DNA from: Leptospiraceae bacterium
Lineage (GTDB): Bacteria; Spirochaetota; Leptospiria; Leptospirales; Leptospiraceae
NCBI GenBank assembly: GCA_015075105.1
Contig: JABTUZ010000002.1
Coordinates: 784,313-848,312, forward strand
Direction of reading: 5' to 3'
DNA: 64,000 nucleotides
A model generated the notes under the pieces. The model did no database searches, had not been told where the DNA came from, and worked only from the letters and a program-made list of their open reading frames with translations. The translations under genes were made by a program, and so were the position numbers. The stretch's first letter is position 1, and every line of letters begins with the position of its first letter. Below are positions 5,033-55,228 of this stretch, piece after piece.

Positions 5033-6388
5033 TTGAGCACCCACCATAAAATAATAAATGGAGATAGTCGAGTTATGACTGAATTGCCTGACAACTCGAT
5101 GCATTTGGCTATAACTTCACCACCCTATTGGCAACTCAAGGACTACGGGACTGACAACCAAATTGGTTTTCACGACAGCTACGAAAATTACATCAACAAC
5201 CTGAATTTAGTTTGGAAGGAATGCTACCGTACTCTTCAAAACGGTTGCAGGTTGTGTGTAAACATTGGCGACCAATTCGCAAGAGCAGTTTATTACGGGC
5301 GATATAAAGTCATTCCTATTCGTGAGGAGATTATCAAATTCTGTGAGAACATCGGATTTGACTATATGGGTGCAATCATCTGGCAAAAAGTTACGACTTC
5401 CAACACCACAGGTGGTGGCGTTCAAATGGGTTCGTATCCCTATCCAAGAAATGGAATTTTGAAATTGGATTATGAATTTATTCTTGTTTTCAAAAAATTA
5501 GGCGATGCTCCCAAACCGACAAAAGAGCAAAAAGAACTTTCCAAAATGACTGCCGAAGAATGGAACACCTATTTTGCAGGGCATTGGAATTTCGCAGGAG
5601 CAAGACAAAGCGGACATATTGCAATGTTCCCGGAAGAACTTCCGAGACGACTGATAAAAATGTTTTCGTTTGTTGGAGAAACCGTTCTTGACCCATTCGC
5701 AGGAAGCGGAACAACTGCATTAGCAGCAAAAAACACAAATAGGAATTCCGTTGGCTTTGAAATCAATCCTGAATTTATTCCAATCATCAAAGAAAAGTTG
5801 GAAGTCCATCAAAAGGATTTGAACGGAACGACTTATGAGTTTGTAAAGCAACAATATATAAAGACAAACTTTGAAAGTGAGATAAAAATGCTTCCATACA
5901 TTTTTAAAGACCCTCATATCCTTGACAAAAGAATTGACATTAAGAAACTTCAATTCGGCTCTAGGATTGATAAAGACAGTTCTACGAAACGAGAAGAACT
6001 ATTCACTGTAAAAGAAGTCATTAGCCCCGAAAAAATAAAATTGAATAATGGTTTGGTAGTAAAGCTAATTGGCATAGAATCATACCCAAAAGGCTTAAAA
6101 GTTTTGGGAGAATATGTCTATCAAGAGGCAATCAAATTTATTATTGATAAAACAAATGGAAAGAAAGTATTTATGAAATTTGATACAATTAAGTATGAGA
6201 ATCACAACGAACTGTTAGCTTATTTATACTTAGAAAATAAAACTTTTATCAATGCTCACTTACTAAAAAATGGATTGGTCAAAGTTGACGAAAATCAAGA
6301 GTTTAAATATTTATCAAAATTTAAATCGCTTTATAAAGATCGTGGTGAAGTAATAAGTGATAATTTAAAAAAATACCGGTATGCTTAG
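5033..6388 (+). CDS. beta-class N4-cytosine/N6-adenine DNA methyltransferase fused to a C-terminal SNase-like (OB-fold) domain
   Basis: Motif IV 'TSPPY' precedes motif I 'DPFAGSGTT' (beta-class order). The C-terminal ~130 aa 'VVKLIGIE...GKKVFMKFD...LLAYLYLENKTFINAHLLKNGLVKV' resembles thermonuclease. TTG start at 5033, because the conserved 'IINGDS' lies before the first ATG. Confidence 0.88.
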   Translation: MSTHHKIINGDSRVMTELPDNSMHLAITSPPYWQLKDYGTDNQIGFHDSYENYINNLNLVWKECYRTLQNGCRLCVNIGDQFARAVYYGRYKVIPIREEIIKFCENIGFDYMGAIIWQKVTTSNTTGGGVQMGSYPYPRNGILKLDYEFILVFKKLGDAPKPTKEQKELSKMTAEEWNTYFAGHWNFAGARQSGHIAMFPEELPRRLIKMFSFVGETVLDPFAGSGTTALAAKNTNRNSVGFEINPEFIPIIKEKLEVHQKDLNGTTYEFVKQQYIKTNFESEIKMLPYIFKDPHILDKRIDIKKLQFGSRIDKDSSTKREELFTVKEVISPEKIKLNNGLVVKLIGIESYPKGLKVLGEYVYQEAIKFIIDKTNGKKVFMKFDTIKYENHNELLAYLYLENKTFINAHLLKNGLVKVDENQEFKYLSKFKSLYKDRGEVISDNLKKYRYA

Positions 6389-7069
6389 TATAAAATACTC
6401 AAAAGAATTCGGTAAAAAAGAGAAAGTTCTCAATTACGCAACGCAAACCTATCAACTTTCACGACCAAACAAAGTTGGGACAGTAATGGCTCTCATTCGT
6501 GAATGTCAGCCGAAAACTATTGAAGAATGGGAAAAGTGGTATTTCCAAAATGCAAATACGGACGGCAAAACACCAACAAAAATTACAAAAGAAAGTTTGA
6601 CTGAATTGGGTGAACGACTTTATGAAAAATTAAAGTAACCGTCATTCCTGAATGGACAGAAGCGTTTAATCAACTAACTTTACAAGACTGCATTGATTAC
6701 ATTCATAATCTAACAATCAACAGAACTTTTGACGGTTTTATTCGTGAAAAATCTGTTATTGAAGATAATTTGGCAAAAGAATTTCCGAACGTAAAATTTG
6801 AAGAAAGCGACCCCGAACTTGACCACGCAGGCGACATTGATTATTTGGGTTGGGTTGGCGACAAAGCGTTTGGAATACAAATCAAACCCGTAACAGCAAA
6901 AGCAAATTTCGGCAACTATTCAGCGACAGAACGAATGAAAGCAAGTTTTGCGGACTTCACTAAAAAATTCGGTGGACAAGTTTTCGTTGTTTTCAGCATT
7001 GACGACAAAATTAAAAACGAAGAAGTAGTAGGGCAGATTGTCCAAGAAATCAAACGATTGATCAAGTAA
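6381..7069 (+). pseudogene. type II restriction endonuclease (PD-(D/E)xK-like), split by a 1-nt frameshift in an A5 run
   Basis: ORFs 6381-6638 and 6770-7069 belong together. The frame of the second ORF is open back to 6626. Adding one A to the run at 6625-6629 gives a continuous ~230-aa product (...LYEKIKVTVIPEWTEAFNQ...). 'DIDY...GIQIKP' is nuclease-core-like. The ATG overlaps the methylase stop (ATGCTTAG). Confidence 0.55.
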
Positions 7070-11854: not shown

Positions 11855-12343
11855 TTAGTATATTTTTTTGCTTTTTTTGGTTTTTCGCCACTTCTTATGT
11901 CGTATCAGCCTATTGTATCGTGTGGTTTTTCTCTTGGAGAGATAGACTCCTACCGCAATCGAACTGACCTTGGGTGGAACTCCAAAGTCATAGAACTTGG
12001 CAGGGATGATTATGTCCCATCCGGCAATGTCAAGCAGCAAAAGAAGAGTAAAAAGAGCCGTTCGGGAAATACCAAGCCATTGAGCAAACTCACCAAGCTC
12101 AATCCAATCTGCGTTCTCAGGACGAAAATTCTTCTTCTGAAGATTCTGCCCTTCTTCCTGATACACCGTTTTAACACAATCCAACTTTTTCAAAGTCCAA
12201 AGTAACACATTCCTGTATCTCTCCAACAATTCGTGCAAGTAATCCTCTCTCGAAATAGTTTCAGTCCTCGAGGTAAACTCATCCATATATTTTTCTGGAA
12301 TAAGCAGACTTGACTGCGTTCGTTCAAATTTTTCTGGATTCAA
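11855..12343 (-). CDS. DUF1564-type hypothetical protein (Leptospira-restricted family)
   Basis: 162-aa ORF. 'SSLLIPE...' and 'W..LG..A...GISRTALFTLLLLLD' match my recollection of DUF1564 proteins. TTG start preceded by AGGAG at 6 nt. Confidence 0.5.
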   Translation of the reverse strand: MNPEKFERTQSSLLIPEKYMDEFTSRTETISREDYLHELLERYRNVLLWTLKKLDCVKTVYQEEGQNLQKKNFRPENADWIELGEFAQWLGISRTALFTLLLLLDIAGWDIIIPAKFYDFGVPPKVSSIAVGVYLSKRKTTRYNRLIRHKKWRKTKKSKKIY

Positions 12344-12495: not shown

Positions 12496-12642
12496 AAATC
12501 TACACTAAATGCGTAATCTCTTGAAATCCCCCAAAAAAGTGGAGTTCCCTCATTTTTGCCTAAAAGGTGAACAATTGGTATAAAACATGCACTTTACTGA
12601 AAAGAGTGGAGATCCCACATTTTTGCACGAAAAGTACAAAAT
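12496..12642 (+). repeat. degenerate copy of the dispersed TIR element, with an internal ~66-bp tandem duplication
   Basis: 'AAATCTACACTAAATGCG' matches the left block. Two units 12535-12568 and 12601-12635 (AAAAGTGGAGTTCCCTCATTTTTGCC / AAAGAGTGGAGATCCCACATTTTTGCAC) match the central block. 'TTTTTGCACGAAAAGTACAAAAT' matches the right block. Confidence 0.45.
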
Positions 12643-12825
12643 CTGTACTAAAAGTAAAATCTTCAAAACTCTACTAAAGTGAAAAACCTCGATCTAAAAA
12701 GAAAAATCTAATGGAATAAGATTTTAGCTCTACTATTTCCGTCCTTAGACCTCAGTCTTTTCGTCCTCCGAATAGTTCTTTAGAAAGAAGTTGCTATGAT
12801 AGAATATTTCACTTAAGATAATTTA

Positions 12826-14927: not shown

Positions 14928-15905
14928 TTAACAAGTATTGTTGTGGTTTACGTGAGAATGTCTTCTTGTCCAAATCCAGCTTACATAAATGATTAGTGCA
15001 AAAAAACCGTAAAAAATAAATTGAGCTAAATGTAAAATTGTCGCATAAACAAGACCGTTTGCTGAAGTTTTTCCCAATAATACAAAACCAGAGATTATAG
15101 AAGCATGAAAAACACCTATCCCGGAAGGAGCTGATGGAATAGCGACACCCATAGCCCCACAAAATATTAAAAAAATAATTTCTATATATGAAATTTGCAT
15201 TCCGAGTAAGCCAAAAATTCCAAGATAAATTGTTGAATATGCACACAACCACATAAAAAGAGATATTAACGCTGGTTTTAAAAAAGCTCTTAAAGTAAGA
15301 AACTCTCCTAAATCCACAATATGCTCTTTAACTTTAGAATGAAAAAATTCTTCCTTTCTTATTAACATAAATGGAAGAGAAAGTATTCTTATGAAAGATT
15401 GATTTTTGTATCGAAGGTAAAGCAAAACTGCAATAAGTCCAAGTACCAAAATTCCCGAAAAAGTAAAAATTGCCAAATTAGAGGACTTCTGTTGATTGAT
15501 TCCTAAGAGAAAAAAAGAAACTAAACCAATGAGGATTACAGTGATAAAATCCACTACTTTCTCAATAAAAATTTTTGAAAGAAGGGTTGGATAAAGAATA
15601 TGAGATTCTTTTTTACAATAAAAAATTCTAAGTATATCTCCACCTCTGGCCGGTAGAATCATATTCGCTCCACCACCTAAAATAACCGAGGCCAAAGCGA
15701 GTTTGTATTTCATTTTTTTTTCAAGAAGAATGTACCATCTTGCACCAAATAGAATAAGACCAAAGATACTACCAAGAATAAATGGTATTAAATAAAAATA
15801 ATTTATTCTCTCTTTGATCTTATAAAATTCATAGAACTCGATTTTACTGATTAAGAAACTAACTGCAAGAAGACTCGTGACAACTCCTACAAGAAGTTTT
15901 TTCAA
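14928..15905 (-). CDS. polytopic membrane protein, flippase-like/LPG-synthase TM-domain family (UPF0104)
   Basis: 325 aa, ~8 TM helices, 'GARWYILL' motif near TM2. Confidence 0.55.
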   Translation of the reverse strand: MKKLLVGVVTSLLAVSFLISKIEFYEFYKIKERINYFYLIPFILGSIFGLILFGARWYILLEKKMKYKLALASVILGGGANMILPARGGDILRIFYCKKESHILYPTLLSKIFIEKVVDFITVILIGLVSFFLLGINQQKSSNLAIFTFSGILVLGLIAVLLYLRYKNQSFIRILSLPFMLIRKEEFFHSKVKEHIVDLGEFLTLRAFLKPALISLFMWLCAYSTIYLGIFGLLGMQISYIEIIFLIFCGAMGVAIPSAPSGIGVFHASIISGFVLLGKTSANGLVYATILHLAQFIFYGFFALIIYVSWIWTRRHSHVNHNNTC

Positions 15906-15941
15906 TTATCCACCTACAATTAGTTTGTTTTGAAGATGATA

Positions 15942-17330
15942 TTAATCTTCATCATCTTCGCTTTTTACTTCTTCTTTTTTCTCTTTTTTATTCACCGCAG
16001 AGTTATCAAATTCATCTTCATCGTCATCGGTTTCTCTTTCTCTAAGGTCAGAACCGGTAGTTTTGGAAATATTGATTACATCGATCTTTGCACCGTAAAC
16101 CCAACCTTCAAGATAATTTTTCTTTACGATTCCATCGTCATAAGCTAACTGAACTAAATAGTAGTAATCTTCTAAGATCTTCCCTGCAATTCTTGCTTTA
16201 TAAAGTTTGGGAGCTACTCTTTTAATTTTAACTATTTCTCCTTTAGACAAGGTGATGATTCTGTCACCTCTGGCGTTTGGACTTCTCTTAATCGTAGCTT
16301 GGTTGGATTTGATTATCGCATAACGTCCGGTAGCATTCCTTCTATACGCTAAAACTTTTTCGATATATTTTTTTGTGTCATCGTCTTTAGTCATAAGATA
16401 GAGTTTTACGAGAACAAGTGTAGCTCCAAATGTTTGGTTGTTGCTTGCCAAGTTATAAGCAATATAACGAATGAAAGGAGCAAGATTTGGTTTAATTTCG
16501 AGAGTTTTATAAATAAGGTCTAAACTTTCTTTGGATCGATGGTGGCTAAGACCGATTAGTGCTTGCATTACAAGCTCGATTTGACTAGACTCAATATATT
16601 TTTTGAATGTAGTCCTATCTTCAGCTACATTATAATATCCTAGTCCTTCTAATGCAGCACCAAGCACTTTTACGTCTTCCGATTTAAGTCCTTCTGAAAC
16701 AATTATTTCTCTTCCAGTCGATGAACGAAGTTTTCCAAGTCCTTTGTATGATGCAGCTCTGATTTCCGGGTATTTTGATTTTGTTCCTCTCAGGAAATAT
16801 TTAAAGGAGCTTTGTGATCCGATAATCGCAATCGAATTGTATGCCGCCTGACGCACTAAATACCCATCTGTTTCAATCGCTCTGTGTAAAGTTTTAAGAC
16901 CTGTTCGCATTCTCCCGAGGGCATCTGCTGCTTCAGCACGAACTTCAGGGATCGGGTGTTTTTGCAATAGTCTGATAATTGCATTTTCACCGGATCTGTT
17001 TCTGCGTGACTCGTAACGCAAGATAAGACTTTTTGCTTCTTCTATTCTGGCTTTTTCGGTTTTAGTTTCCGGTGCAGCTTTTTTGTCTCCTTCTTTTGGT
17101 GCTGACTCATCTTTTTTATTTGAGTCATCATCATCCGTTGAATCATCACCATCATCTTTCACTGTGATTAGCGTAGTGTTGGAATTTTTGGAAAAATCTT
17201 GCATTGTGTTTGTTTCAAGAAAATTTTTCTCGTTGAGTTTTTCAGAGAAATACCCTTTTTCAACTGAATAGACAGTTGAAGCAAAAAAGAATAGGAGTGT
17301 TGCTATGAGCGATGTTTTCAAGGAAGTCAC
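15942..17330 (-). CDS. secreted HEAT-repeat protein with acidic low-complexity segments
   Basis: Signal peptide; HEAT-like repeats 'PEVRAEAADALGRM' and 'PEIRAASYKGLGKL'; D/E-rich stretches near both ends. Confidence 0.6.
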   Translation of the reverse strand: MTSLKTSLIATLLFFFASTVYSVEKGYFSEKLNEKNFLETNTMQDFSKNSNTTLITVKDDGDDSTDDDDSNKKDESAPKEGDKKAAPETKTEKARIEEAKSLILRYESRRNRSGENAIIRLLQKHPIPEVRAEAADALGRMRTGLKTLHRAIETDGYLVRQAAYNSIAIIGSQSSFKYFLRGTKSKYPEIRAASYKGLGKLRSSTGREIIVSEGLKSEDVKVLGAALEGLGYYNVAEDRTTFKKYIESSQIELVMQALIGLSHHRSKESLDLIYKTLEIKPNLAPFIRYIAYNLASNNQTFGATLVLVKLYLMTKDDDTKKYIEKVLAYRRNATGRYAIIKSNQATIKRSPNARGDRIITLSKGEIVKIKRVAPKLYKARIAGKILEDYYYLVQLAYDDGIVKKNYLEGWVYGAKIDVINISKTTGSDLRERETDDDEDEFDNSAVNKKEKKEEVKSEDDED

Positions 17331-21167: not shown

Positions 21168-22640
21168 TTAATTAGCCCCCGTTATCGCTATCCCCGAAGG
21201 TGTCGTACCTGTGGCTCCAGAGGAAGAAACTGTCGGGACTCCCGTACTTTGATCAATTGCGCTAACATAGAAAGTGTTTGTAACAGAATTGATTGAATAT
21301 AAAAATTTTCCGGAAGGGTCAATTATTAGTCCAGTTGGTAAATCGCCACTGGTAGTAACTGTTCCTCCAGAAGTTAAAACTCCAGTAGTAGAATTTATAG
21401 TATAACCTGCAATTGTACCTGTTCCACTACCATTATAGCCAAGATATACAAACCTGCCGAGAGGATCCATCGCAACTGATTGAGAAGATGTACCAGTTAC
21501 AGAAGCAGATGCTATATAGCTCAAAGCACCCGTCGAACCTATTGAGCTGTAGTCAATTTGTTGTGGTGCAGCTGAAGCTGAATAAAGGAATTTACTATCC
21601 GGGGATATTTCTATTGCTCTGGAATTATTCCCGGTGTTGTATGAATTGATAAGACTAAGTGCTCCTGAAGTTGGATTGATCGAATAAGAATATATTGAAG
21701 ATGTAGGAGATTGACACGCTACAAATAGAAATTTTCCGTAAGGGTCGATCTTGATCCAAGCCCCATCCAACCCCGTTGGAAATGATCCGGATGAGGTAAG
21801 TGCCCCCGTGCTTAGATCGGCTGTGTATTGATAGATAGTTGAAGACTGATCTACTGAATACACAAATTTACCTGTAGGGTGGATAGCAACCGATTGGGGA
21901 CCTGTTCCGGTAGATAAAGTAGAAGTAGCAGAATTTAACGATCCGTCAGTTTGATTAATTGTATGAAGTGAGATTGTACTTGTAGAAGGGTAAACAACAT
22001 ATAAAAATTTTCCGGTTGGGTCTATAGTTAGTCCCGTGGGACCGGATCCCGAAACTGGAGTAGAAGTATTTGATAAAGAGCCGTCTGTAGAATTTACAGT
22101 AAAAACAGAAATTGTAGTTGCACCACCATTTGTGACGTATAAATACTTAGGTACACTAAACAAGGTTTGAATTGTAACGCTTCCAGTAGCAGAGCCACCA
22201 CTATTGGATCCGGTGATTGTGTAAGTAGTCATTGCCGTGCCAGTGGTAGGTGTTCCGCTAAGCACACAGTTGCTGCTTAAAACTAATCCGGTAGGTAAGG
22301 TCGGACTTGAGGTGCAAGAAGTTGGAGTTCCACCTGTTATAGTAGGGGTTACGCTCGTAATGACAGAATTTTGCCTAAAAAGATAGGGAGTAGGTGAGTA
22401 GGTTATCGAATTTGGTTTACTGCCTAAAAGAGAGCAATACGCAGAGCTATCTCCCGTAAACGCTTTAGAAAAGAGGGTATTCTGGTAGGTTTTAGAATTT
22501 GGATCGCATGGATTTTCAAATCTAGGATTCTTGCAAGAAAAGTGCAATAGGATAAATGAAATAGCTGCAGTAATCTGAAAAGGCAATAAAACTCTTCTAA
22601 AATCAAAAATAAAATTTTTAATATTATGTCTTATAAACAT
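21168..22640 (-). CDS. lipoprotein with Ig-like segment and lactonase-type beta-propeller repeats
   Basis: Lipobox 'LLHFSC'. Six repeats of 'D/HP.GKF.Y' (DPTGKFLYV, HPTGKFVYS, DPYGKFLFV, SPDSKFLYS, DPLGRFVYL, DPSGKFLYS). T/S/G-rich. Confidence 0.7.
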   Translation of the reverse strand: MFIRHNIKNFIFDFRRVLLPFQITAAISFILLHFSCKNPRFENPCDPNSKTYQNTLFSKAFTGDSSAYCSLLGSKPNSITYSPTPYLFRQNSVITSVTPTITGGTPTSCTSSPTLPTGLVLSSNCVLSGTPTTGTAMTTYTITGSNSGGSATGSVTIQTLFSVPKYLYVTNGGATTISVFTVNSTDGSLSNTSTPVSGSGPTGLTIDPTGKFLYVVYPSTSTISLHTINQTDGSLNSATSTLSTGTGPQSVAIHPTGKFVYSVDQSSTIYQYTADLSTGALTSSGSFPTGLDGAWIKIDPYGKFLFVACQSPTSSIYSYSINPTSGALSLINSYNTGNNSRAIEISPDSKFLYSASAAPQQIDYSSIGSTGALSYIASASVTGTSSQSVAMDPLGRFVYLGYNGSGTGTIAGYTINSTTGVLTSGGTVTTSGDLPTGLIIDPSGKFLYSINSVTNTFYVSAIDQSTGVPTVSSSGATGTTPSGIAITGAN

Positions 22641-22728: not shown

Positions 22729-22847
22729 ATTTATGACACTTCTACAAAAACTCTAAATGAGTTTTGTATCGCTATGAATGGCAATTTCCCTGAGTTTTTG
22801 AGCATATATTTCCAAGAAAGACTTTTTGCAGGTACGCTATTTTTATA
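22729..22847 (+). repeat. dispersed TIR element, copy A
   Basis: ATTTATGACACTTCTACAAAAACTC ... TGAATGGCAATTTCCC ... TTTTTGCAGGTACGCTATTTTTATA. Alignable over its full length with copy B; ends exactly at the stop codon of the 22843-23448 gene. Confidence 0.75.
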
Positions 22848-25713: not shown

Positions 25714-25800
25714 CTTGTCAAATTCTACAATTTTTTCATTTAGAAAAAATTTCCTTTTTTAGACGTTTTTCACAAAAGAGTCTTTGGATCGTCTTATAAA
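25714..25800 (+). repeat. short degenerate copy of the dispersed TIR element
   Basis: 'TGTCAAATTCTACAA' (left block), 'AATTTCCTTTTTT' (central), 'TTTGGATCGTCTTATAAA' (right block), in the same order as in A/B. Confidence 0.35.
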
Positions 25801-29126: not shown

Positions 29127-29246
29127 ATTTGCCCACTTCTACAAAAACCCTTAAATAGAATTTTTCGTTGTTTACAAGTTGTCGATTTACAATATTTTTT
29201 CTATATGTTTGTTTGTAACAATAATTTTCGCAGGCGTATCTTTAAG
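29127..29246 (+). repeat. dispersed TIR element, copy D
   Basis: GATTTGCCCACTTCTACAAAAACCCTTAAATAGAATTTTTCG ... AATTTTCGCAGGCGTATCTTTAAG; the first ~35 nt are nearly identical to copy A. Confidence 0.65.
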
Positions 29247-29322: not shown

Positions 29323-29351
29323 TTGACAATATAGGGTATTTTTGTTATACA
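29323..29351 (+). promoter_or_regulatory. sigma70-like promoter of the tRNA-Ser pair
   Basis: TTGACA (29323-29328), 17-nt spacer, TATACA (29346-29351), 13 nt before the tRNA 5' end. Confidence 0.5.
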
Positions 29352-29364
29352 GTCATTACATTTT

Positions 29365-30459: not shown

Positions 30460-30533
30460 GCGCCCATAGCTCAACTGGATAGAGCATTTGACTACGGATC
30501 AAAAGGTTAGGGGTTCAAATCCCTTTGGGCGCA
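30460..30533 (+). tRNA. tRNA-Arg (anticodon ACG)
   Basis: Acceptor GCGCCCA/TGGGCGC, anticodon loop CUACGGA, GGTTCAAATCC. Confidence 0.9.
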
Positions 30534-30620: not shown

Positions 30621-31046
30621 ATGGAAGAAGTATTTCTAAAAAAATTTTTTCACAGGTATCCACACGTTTTAGAAGAGATTCCTTCTTTTACTCAGATTTA
30701 CGATAAGGATGAATTGATTGCAGAAAAATTCAATTCTACGGTGGCAGAAAAAAGTTTTATACAGCATAGTGAAATTTTAGCGATTCAAGAAGCCAATTCT
30801 ATAAAAACGTATTTTGAAAATGCAACTCTTCTTACAACTCTTGAGCCTTGTATTATGTGTGCGGGTGCAATCATTAAGTCAAGAATTCAAACAGTGATTT
30901 ATTTCGTTGAAGCTACAAAATATGAAGGTATCTCGTCCTTGCAGCCAGAGTTTATTTACAACCTAAACTTTTTTCCAAAGATTATTTATAATAAAAATGC
31001 GAAGATTCAAGAAATATTTAAAAGTTTTTTTTTAGCCAAAAGATAG
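30621..31046 (+). CDS. tadA: tRNA-specific adenosine deaminase (CDA-fold)
   Basis: Zinc motifs 'HSE' (IQHSEILAIQEA) and 'PCIMCAGA'; conserved position upstream of dnaX-ybaB-recR. Confidence 0.75.
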   Translation: MEEVFLKKFFHRYPHVLEEIPSFTQIYDKDELIAEKFNSTVAEKSFIQHSEILAIQEANSIKTYFENATLLTTLEPCIMCAGAIIKSRIQTVIYFVEATKYEGISSLQPEFIYNLNFFPKIIYNKNAKIQEIFKSFFLAKR

Positions 31047-37602: not shown

Positions 37603-37727
37603 ATTTATGACGCTACTGCAAAAACCCATTTCAGGGCTTTTTACAACGCTAGAAAATGGCACTTTTATTGGCTTTTTGAACAATTGCTTTTTCAAAAACA
37701 GTTTTTTGCAGGTACGCCATTTATAAA
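37603..37727 (+). repeat. dispersed TIR element, copy B (best-preserved TIRs)
   Basis: ATTTATGACGCTACTGCAAAAACCC ... GCTAGAAAATGGCAC ... TTTTTTGCAGGTACGCCATTTATAAA; the ends are imperfect reverse complements. Lies between divergent genes. Confidence 0.75.
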
Positions 37728-46118: not shown

Positions 46119-46160
46119 CACCCTATCTGAATATTTCAAAAATAAACCACTGAAACGAAA

Positions 46161-46267
46161 CTATTTACGAGGACTTCAAAAATTAAATCCCTTAGAGCTT
46201 TTTCGATAGTGTCATTCACTATCAATACAAAACCCGTTTTATGGTTTTTGCAGTAGTGTCATAAAAA
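46161..46267 (-). repeat. dispersed TIR element, copy C (reverse orientation)
   Basis: Reverse complement reads TTTTATGACACTACTGCAAAAACC...GGGTTTTGTATTGATAGTGAATGACAC...ATTTTTGAAGTCCTCGTAAATAG; the first ~55 nt closely match copy A. Confidence 0.65.
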
Positions 46268-55102: not shown

Positions 55103-55228
55103 TCTATAAAATGCCCTTTTGTAGAAGATCTTCTCTAAAAAGGTACTTTAAAATACTGACAAATCGCCATTTTCCAGAAACGTGAAAAACTAATTATAGG
55201 GTTCTTGTCAGAGTATATTAAAAATATC
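55103..55228 (-). repeat. dispersed TIR element, copy E (reverse orientation, more diverged)
   Basis: Reverse complement reads GATATTT..CTCTGACAAGAACCC...TTTTTCACGTTTCTGGAAAATGGCG...CTACAAAAGGGCATTTTATAGA, with blocks in the same order as copy B. Confidence 0.55.

Follow-up and report, generated by a model that had tools for sequence, protein, structure and literature searches.

The window, a stretch of 64,000 nucleotides of a Leptospiraceae genome, has a G+C content of 34.6% and is filled with ordinary core genes: genes for OmpA-, LpoB- and DUF2147-type envelope proteins, ftsQ-ftsA-ftsZ, prfC, recR and recG. Four tRNA genes are also present, three for tRNA-Ser and one for tRNA-Arg. The prfC product is 78% identical to that of the next relative and approximately 70-73% identical to those of Leptospira species. 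All other assemblies carrying the window genes were of the same strain (99.99-100% identity), and the window's own species was represented by this one strain among the assemblies examined.

Intergenic repeat copies in the window

A short repeat recurs in the gaps between these genes. An earlier note on this DNA had listed five clear copies, here designated A to E. Family membership was assessed with leave-one-out nhmmer profile searches and with blastn between copies. Three of the five (A, B and C) were firm, whereas D and E were marginal, with E-values of about 1e-3. The copies and their parts are as follows.

Copy A, 22729..22844, + strand: body 22735-22838 (104 bp, GACAC...ACGCT)
Copy A flanks, + strand: ATTTAT at 22729-22734 and ATTTTT at 22839-22844
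Copy A subterminal hairpin, 22743..22768, + strand: TACAAAA(A)CTC-TAAAT-GAGTTTTGTA, -7.7 kcal/mol (ViennaRNA)
Copy D, 29127..29246, + strand: marginal, strongly decayed
Copy B, 37603..37724, + strand: body 37609-37718 (110 bp, GACGC...ACGCC), the best-preserved copy
Copy B flanks, + strand: perfect 6-bp ATTTAT direct repeats at 37603-37608 and 37719-37724
Copy B subterminal hairpin, 37617..37645, + strand: TGCAAAAACCC-ATTTCA-GGGCTTTTTACA, -5.9 kcal/mol (ViennaRNA)
Copy C, 46155..46266, - strand: left end and hairpin well kept (46207-46266)
Copy E, 55104..55213, - strand: marginal, strongly decayed

Strictly intergenic placement and the occurrence of both orientations were confirmed, as were the named neighbours, i.e. 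the tRNA-Ser operon, the FtsQ-type POTRA gene, prfC and the divergent response-regulator/nitroreductase pair. The right flanking repeat of copy A holds the stop codon (22843-22845) of the LpoB-like gene. Copy B is located between the divergent response-regulator and nitroreductase genes, and copy C between the terminator of the DUF2147 gene and prfC. Copy D is bordered by a tRNA U5-methyltransferase-like gene and by the tRNA-Ser operon, whose sigma-70-like promoter (TTGACA-17-TATACA, ~29324-29352) is outside the copy. Copy E separates the ftsQ-like gene from a divergent gene of unknown function. The density is thus three firm and two marginal copies per 64 kb. The five copies occupy 5 of the 8 intergenic gaps of at least 200 bp, only three of them firmly, and the claim that nearly every gap over 200 bp carries an element was overstated.

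Copies A and B were aligned over their full length with 69% identity (blastn E 2e-12), and the left half of copy C matched A with 79% identity over 61 nt (E 4e-8). Copy D was 65% identical to A (E 3e-4), and copy E gave no convincing pairwise blastn match to the other window copies. In the leave-one-out nhmmer searches, A was recovered at E 4e-16, B at 2e-17, C at 3e-8 over its left half, and D at 2e-3 over 29134-29235, which is nearly full length. Copy E, which was never used as a seed, was found nearly full length by every model (E 2e-4 to 9e-4). The left-end 21-mer TTATGACRCTWCTRCAAAAAC occurs exactly three times in the window against 0.01 expected, and a right-end 20-mer occurs twice against 0.03 expected. 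Mutual identity among the window copies is 53-68%.

Two more loci, 25714-25800 and 12496-12642, had been taken for degenerate copies; neither was matched by blastn or by any profile model. The absence of these two from the family, the weak matches of D and E and the 34.6% G+C of the genome are what could be expected if the whole pattern were chance similarity of A+T-rich intergenic DNA. This explanation is nevertheless highly improbable, given E-values between 1e-8 and 1e-17 for the three firm copies, cross-genome E-values reaching 1e-16, and an exact 21-mer found three times where 0.01 was expected. Chance is excluded for A, B and C, and could apply only to D and E taken individually. The repeat family, with A, B and C as firm and D and E as marginal members, is real.

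Two other repeats or matches were noticed in the course of these searches. Positions 12537-12773 constitute one unit of a different repeat of ~231 nt, upstream of a DUF1564 gene (11855-12343, - strand). Another DUF1564 gene, some kb beyond the left edge of the window, also has this repeat upstream, there as 2.3 tandem units with 86% matches (positions 15754-16284 of the L130 stretch). Within a HEAT-repeat gene, positions 16958-16978 match the left-end 21-mer with three mismatches; this was taken as chance because nothing element-like extends beyond the 21-mer.

Copies in related Leptospiraceae

Exact matches to the left end were sought in 185,579 genomes, one per species. Two sites were found in the metagenome-assembled genome (MAG) GCA_964436695.1 and one in Nitrosopumilus, the latter being taken as chance. 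GCA_964436695.1 is an uncultured Leptospiraceae with ~76% nucleotide identity to the window genome in shared syntenic genes; the Crp-family regulators of the two genomes are 95% identical at the protein level. Its two copies, L2 and L3, lie at unrelated loci and share 99% identity over 111-112 bp. When the two 8-kb loci were compared by blastn, the sole match was the 130-bp element, and the similarity ended sharply.

The relationship to the window copies was evident in both directions. A profile built from the window copies alone detected L2 and L3 at E ~1e-16, and L2 as the only query detected copy B at E 8e-13. Copy B is nearer to L2 and L3 (74% identity) than to the copies of its own genome (at most 68%). 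A third lineage, GCA_964362895.1, has only the left end with its hairpin, at another locus and upstream of an unrelated gene. Apart from this fragment (L136), no solo ends were found with sub-models of the left end and of the right end. Matches of 19 nt to the left end in metagenomes (97 stretches) and viruses (12 stretches) were rejected as chance, the nhmmer matches in them covering only the searched word. By blastn, plasmids gave no match and phages only two short ones, covering less than 30% of the query (E 9e-3).

A further ~24 kb of the window's genome, consisting of a 10-kb extension and an unlinked 13.8 kb, contained no additional copies. With only two exact left ends in the related MAG and none in the extra ~24 kb, the copy number of the family may be modest.

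Comparison of orthologous loci in relatives, which the earlier note had proposed, gave a partial answer at dcd. In the GCA_964436695.1 lineage, dcd and a convergent gene are separated by 383 nt, and this gap contains L3. The two genes overlap by 4-8 nt and no element is present in two relatives (L136/L137 and L149), which have dcd proteins of 89% and 93% identity to that of the MAG. The absence in relatives is shown, but the empty site is not clean, since only the central 137 nt of the 377-nt spacer at the occupied site (L133 10520-10896) are the element, which leaves ~240 nt extra. A short common direct repeat, TTCTTGCGTTNGATNT, was observed in the ~240 nt around the element, and these may be the remains of another insertion. 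At the prfC loci of five relatives (75-78% protein identity, ~55 kb in all) no family member was found. Synteny is not conserved among these nearest relatives, and for this reason the prfC region yields no orthologous empty site.

Contig ends coincide with two of the copies. Four independent Logan contigs start at window position 37669, inside copy B, and a JGI contig breaks off within L3 (L135 10755). These ends may reflect repeat-induced assembly breaks, of which they are a weak sign. Contigs from other strains of the related MAG end short of the L2 insertion.

Ends, subterminal hairpin and flanking repeats

The body of the element is 104-112 bp long and has the form GAC...G(T/C)C; in L2 and L3 it reads GACGCTACTGCAAAAA...TTTTTACAGGATGGTC. 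Within it, the order is constant: a left end, then the central block GCTAGAAAATGGCA, then a T-rich block. This agrees with the three common blocks described earlier, and the central block is kept across genomes. The alignments revealed no conserved ORF shared among copies.

Terminal inverted repeats (TIRs) were scored by comparing the first 16 nt of the body with the reverse complement of the last 16 nt. B, L2 and L3 each scored 12/16 (P ~1.5e-4 per pair against composition-matched random 16-mers), A scored 9/16 and E 8/16. In copy C the right end has diverged and neither a TIR (3/16) nor a flanking repeat is recognisable; no TIR could be recognised in D. The terminal inverted repeats reported earlier are therefore present, as in B, but they are short and imperfect and cannot be recognised in C and D. 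Their perfect core, CTGCAAAAA, is only ~9 nt. The same core is repeated in inverted orientation just inside the left end, in the arrangement TGCAAAAA-stem top-loop-TTTTTGCA. The resulting subterminal hairpin has an energy of -6 to -9 kcal/mol in A, B, C and L2 (ViennaRNA) and is lost in D, where no hairpin was found, and in E. The stem tops of A, B, C and L2 differ (CTC/GAG, CCC/GGG, CC/GG and CCT/AGG), and the stem base is TAC/GTA in A versus TGC/GCA in L2.

Matching 6-mers flank the body on both sides in three of the four intact copies: AATTAT in L2, ATTTAT in L3 and ATTTAT in B. The fourth, copy A, scores 5/6 (ATTTAT versus ATTTTT). The 6-mer was read as a target-site duplication in an A+T-rich target because the nearly identical copies L2 and L3 differ in the same way on both sides. 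This reading rests on one covarying position. ATTTAT, which is found on both sides of B and L3 and on the left of A, could instead be part of the element.

A hairpin-recognised mobile element of the IS200/IS605 or REP/RAYT type, which would use a fixed ATTTAT-like target and produce no duplication, would account for several of these features. A, B, C, L2 and the solo fragment L136 all retain the subterminal hairpin, with differing stem tops, and the stem base TGC...GCA of L2 has become TAC...GTA in A. ATTTAT recurs at the left junction of A, B and L3, and the terminal inverted repeats are poor. In the conserved subterminal hairpin and the recurring left-junction sequence the family resembles the IS200/IS605-derived palindrome-associated elements and REP/RAYT. 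However, the 6-mers match on both sides and vary among insertions (AATTAT on both sides of L2, ATTTAT on both sides of L3), which is not predicted without duplication. The right end has no conserved hairpin comparable to the left one, and no gene for a Y1-transposase or TnpB was found in the window. REP units are ~20-40 nt, much shorter than the element. We regard an origin of this type as unlikely.

The copies had also been proposed to fold into a long stem. The + strands of A and B folded no better than shuffled sequences (z-scores -0.65 and -1.3), and no consensus structure was obtained with RNAalifold. The z-scores of the element strand of A, B, D and E and of the opposite strand of A were unremarkable (-1.6 to +1.2); those of copy C and of the minus strand of B were about -3.4 to -3.5. 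A search of the window with Rfam 15 at the gathering threshold returned only the four tRNAs, and nothing was found around A and B at E-values up to 1. In the promoter/terminator scan of B, a single hybrid -35/-10 came up at the left end, no more than in shuffled sequences, and no convincing promoter reading outward was seen.

These results bear on a reading of the copies as functional cis-regulatory or small-RNA modules under selection in front of core genes, such as a weak bidirectional terminator, a stability hairpin or a protein-binding site. The hairpin comprises an A-run, a short G+C stem and a T-run, and has been retained despite the changes in the stem; the central block is also kept across genomes. 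Copy B is closer to the copies of another genus-level lineage than to those of its own genome, and at each of the seven loci the left end is turned towards a start codon at a distance of 60-112 nt. Yet the orientation is informative at only three of the seven loci (chance 1/8), and the gene context varies among divergent promoters, tandem genes and, for L3, convergent genes. The folding, Rfam and promoter/terminator results described above also speak against such modules, as does the absence of the element from the prfC and dcd loci of relatives. Moreover, selection of this kind leaves the sharp-edged, 99%-identical copies with their flanking direct repeats unexplained. A purely regulatory origin is accordingly judged improbable.

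A related proposal is that copies were co-opted to regulate core genes, and that selection has for this reason kept the hairpin and central block. The genes concerned would be prfC, the promoter region on the ftsQ side, the tRNA operon and the response regulator, and a co-opted copy could act as a weak bidirectional terminator, an RNA-stability hairpin or an outward signal from the left end. If true, co-option would explain why the block order is kept in copies 55-70% diverged and why in every case the left end points to a start codon at 60-112 nt. We hold this, too, to be an unlikely explanation.

A probable MITE family

We consider it likely that the family is a non-autonomous DNA transposon, i.e. 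a miniature inverted-repeat transposable element (MITE), of 104-112 bp. The size falls in the range of 50-800 bp, the element has no coding capacity, and dispersed copies are found at unrelated loci. The MITE reading is supported by the flanks of L2 and L3, which match at each insertion, as target-site duplication predicts. The suggestion of a dispersed, non-autonomous, MITE-like family was strengthened by the occurrence of L2 and L3 at unrelated loci, with sharp ends and matching 6-bp flanks. A transposase encoded elsewhere, whose existence and type we infer, would bind both ends of the element and cut it out or copy it. Insertion would then take place in A+T-rich intergenic DNA of the ATTTAT/AATTAT type, presumably with duplication of 6 bp.

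No transposase domain was detected in any gene of the window, as the earlier note had also stated. The left-end scan of the 185,579 species genomes found no autonomous IS with matching ends; since exact matches were demanded, a diverged parent IS may escape it. A DDE_Tnp_1 fragment on a related contig (L134 1-402) was tried as parent and rejected, its end being unrelated.

The family appears to be old in the window genome, where the copies are 53-68% identical and some ends have been lost. The window copies are probably immobile fossils that are tolerated in the promoter and terminator gaps of core genes. In the related Leptospiraceae lineage, two copies with 99% identity suggest recent activity, and the two genomes would therefore differ in the age of their copies. 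It is possible that copies affect neighbouring genes via the hairpin or outward-reading signals.

A 2024 census reported Leptospirales to be richer in MITEs than any other order, the median being 154 per genome (PMC11602168). Its definition of a MITE asks for a length of 50-800 bp, inverted repeats no shorter than 10-15 bp and a duplication of 2-10 bp (PMC11602168). The family is similar to the Leptospirales cMITEs of that census in size, in having TIRs of 10-16 bp and short flanking repeats within the 2-10 bp range, and in its lack of a transposase, intergenic location and host order (PMC11602168). Unlike the census MITEs, it has imperfect TIRs, and the copies in the window are strongly decayed. 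Programs requiring intact TIRs and flanking duplications would probably miss most of the window copies. We found no named Leptospiraceae MITE family in the literature, the census sequences not being part of this comparison, and no match in Rfam, in agreement with the earlier view that the repeat is not a recognised family. The particular family is unnamed, yet it is an ordinary kind of element for Leptospirales.

The Correia elements of Neisseria and the RUP elements of Streptococcus pneumoniae, to which the repeat had been likened, are non-coding intergenic elements of ~100-150 bp with inverted ends that occur in both orientations. Their inverted repeats are long and well matched, and their duplication is TA or otherwise short. 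The general architecture is alike and nothing else links the families: the element has 6-bp A+T-rich flanking repeats and an imperfect 16-bp TIR, and the host phyla are unrelated. Judged by phylum and by the features of the ends and duplications, membership in the Correia or RUP families is very unlikely.

If the MITE reading is correct, the family would be one more unnamed MITE family, in uncultured Leptospiraceae outside Leptospira, and its copies would account for several oversized intergenic gaps. The practical value is modest. The copies would serve as a marker for insertion-site typing and for tracing an active transposase in the related lineage, and may flag candidate sites at which the expression of core genes was rewired by a mobile element.

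Three further observations concern other parts of the window. The tRNA-Arg(ACG) gene (30460-30533) is located 87 nt upstream of a gene of the cytidine/adenosine-deaminase family (30621-31046; dCMP_cyt_deam_1 / MafB19-deam, TadA-like). The TadA-like deaminase family edits tRNA-Arg(ACG) in other bacteria, and the adjacency is probably ordinary. The region 5033-7069 contains an N6/N4 DNA methyltransferase gene (5033-6388) and, after it, two short ORFs (6381-6638 and 6770-7069). Both ORFs match RE_MjaI in a sister assembly, which suggests that a restriction endonuclease next to the intact methylase has been split and probably inactivated. Within a lactonase/beta-propeller gene (21168-22640), direct repeats of 29-40 nt at 21295-22126 probably reflect the blades of the propeller rather than mobile DNA.
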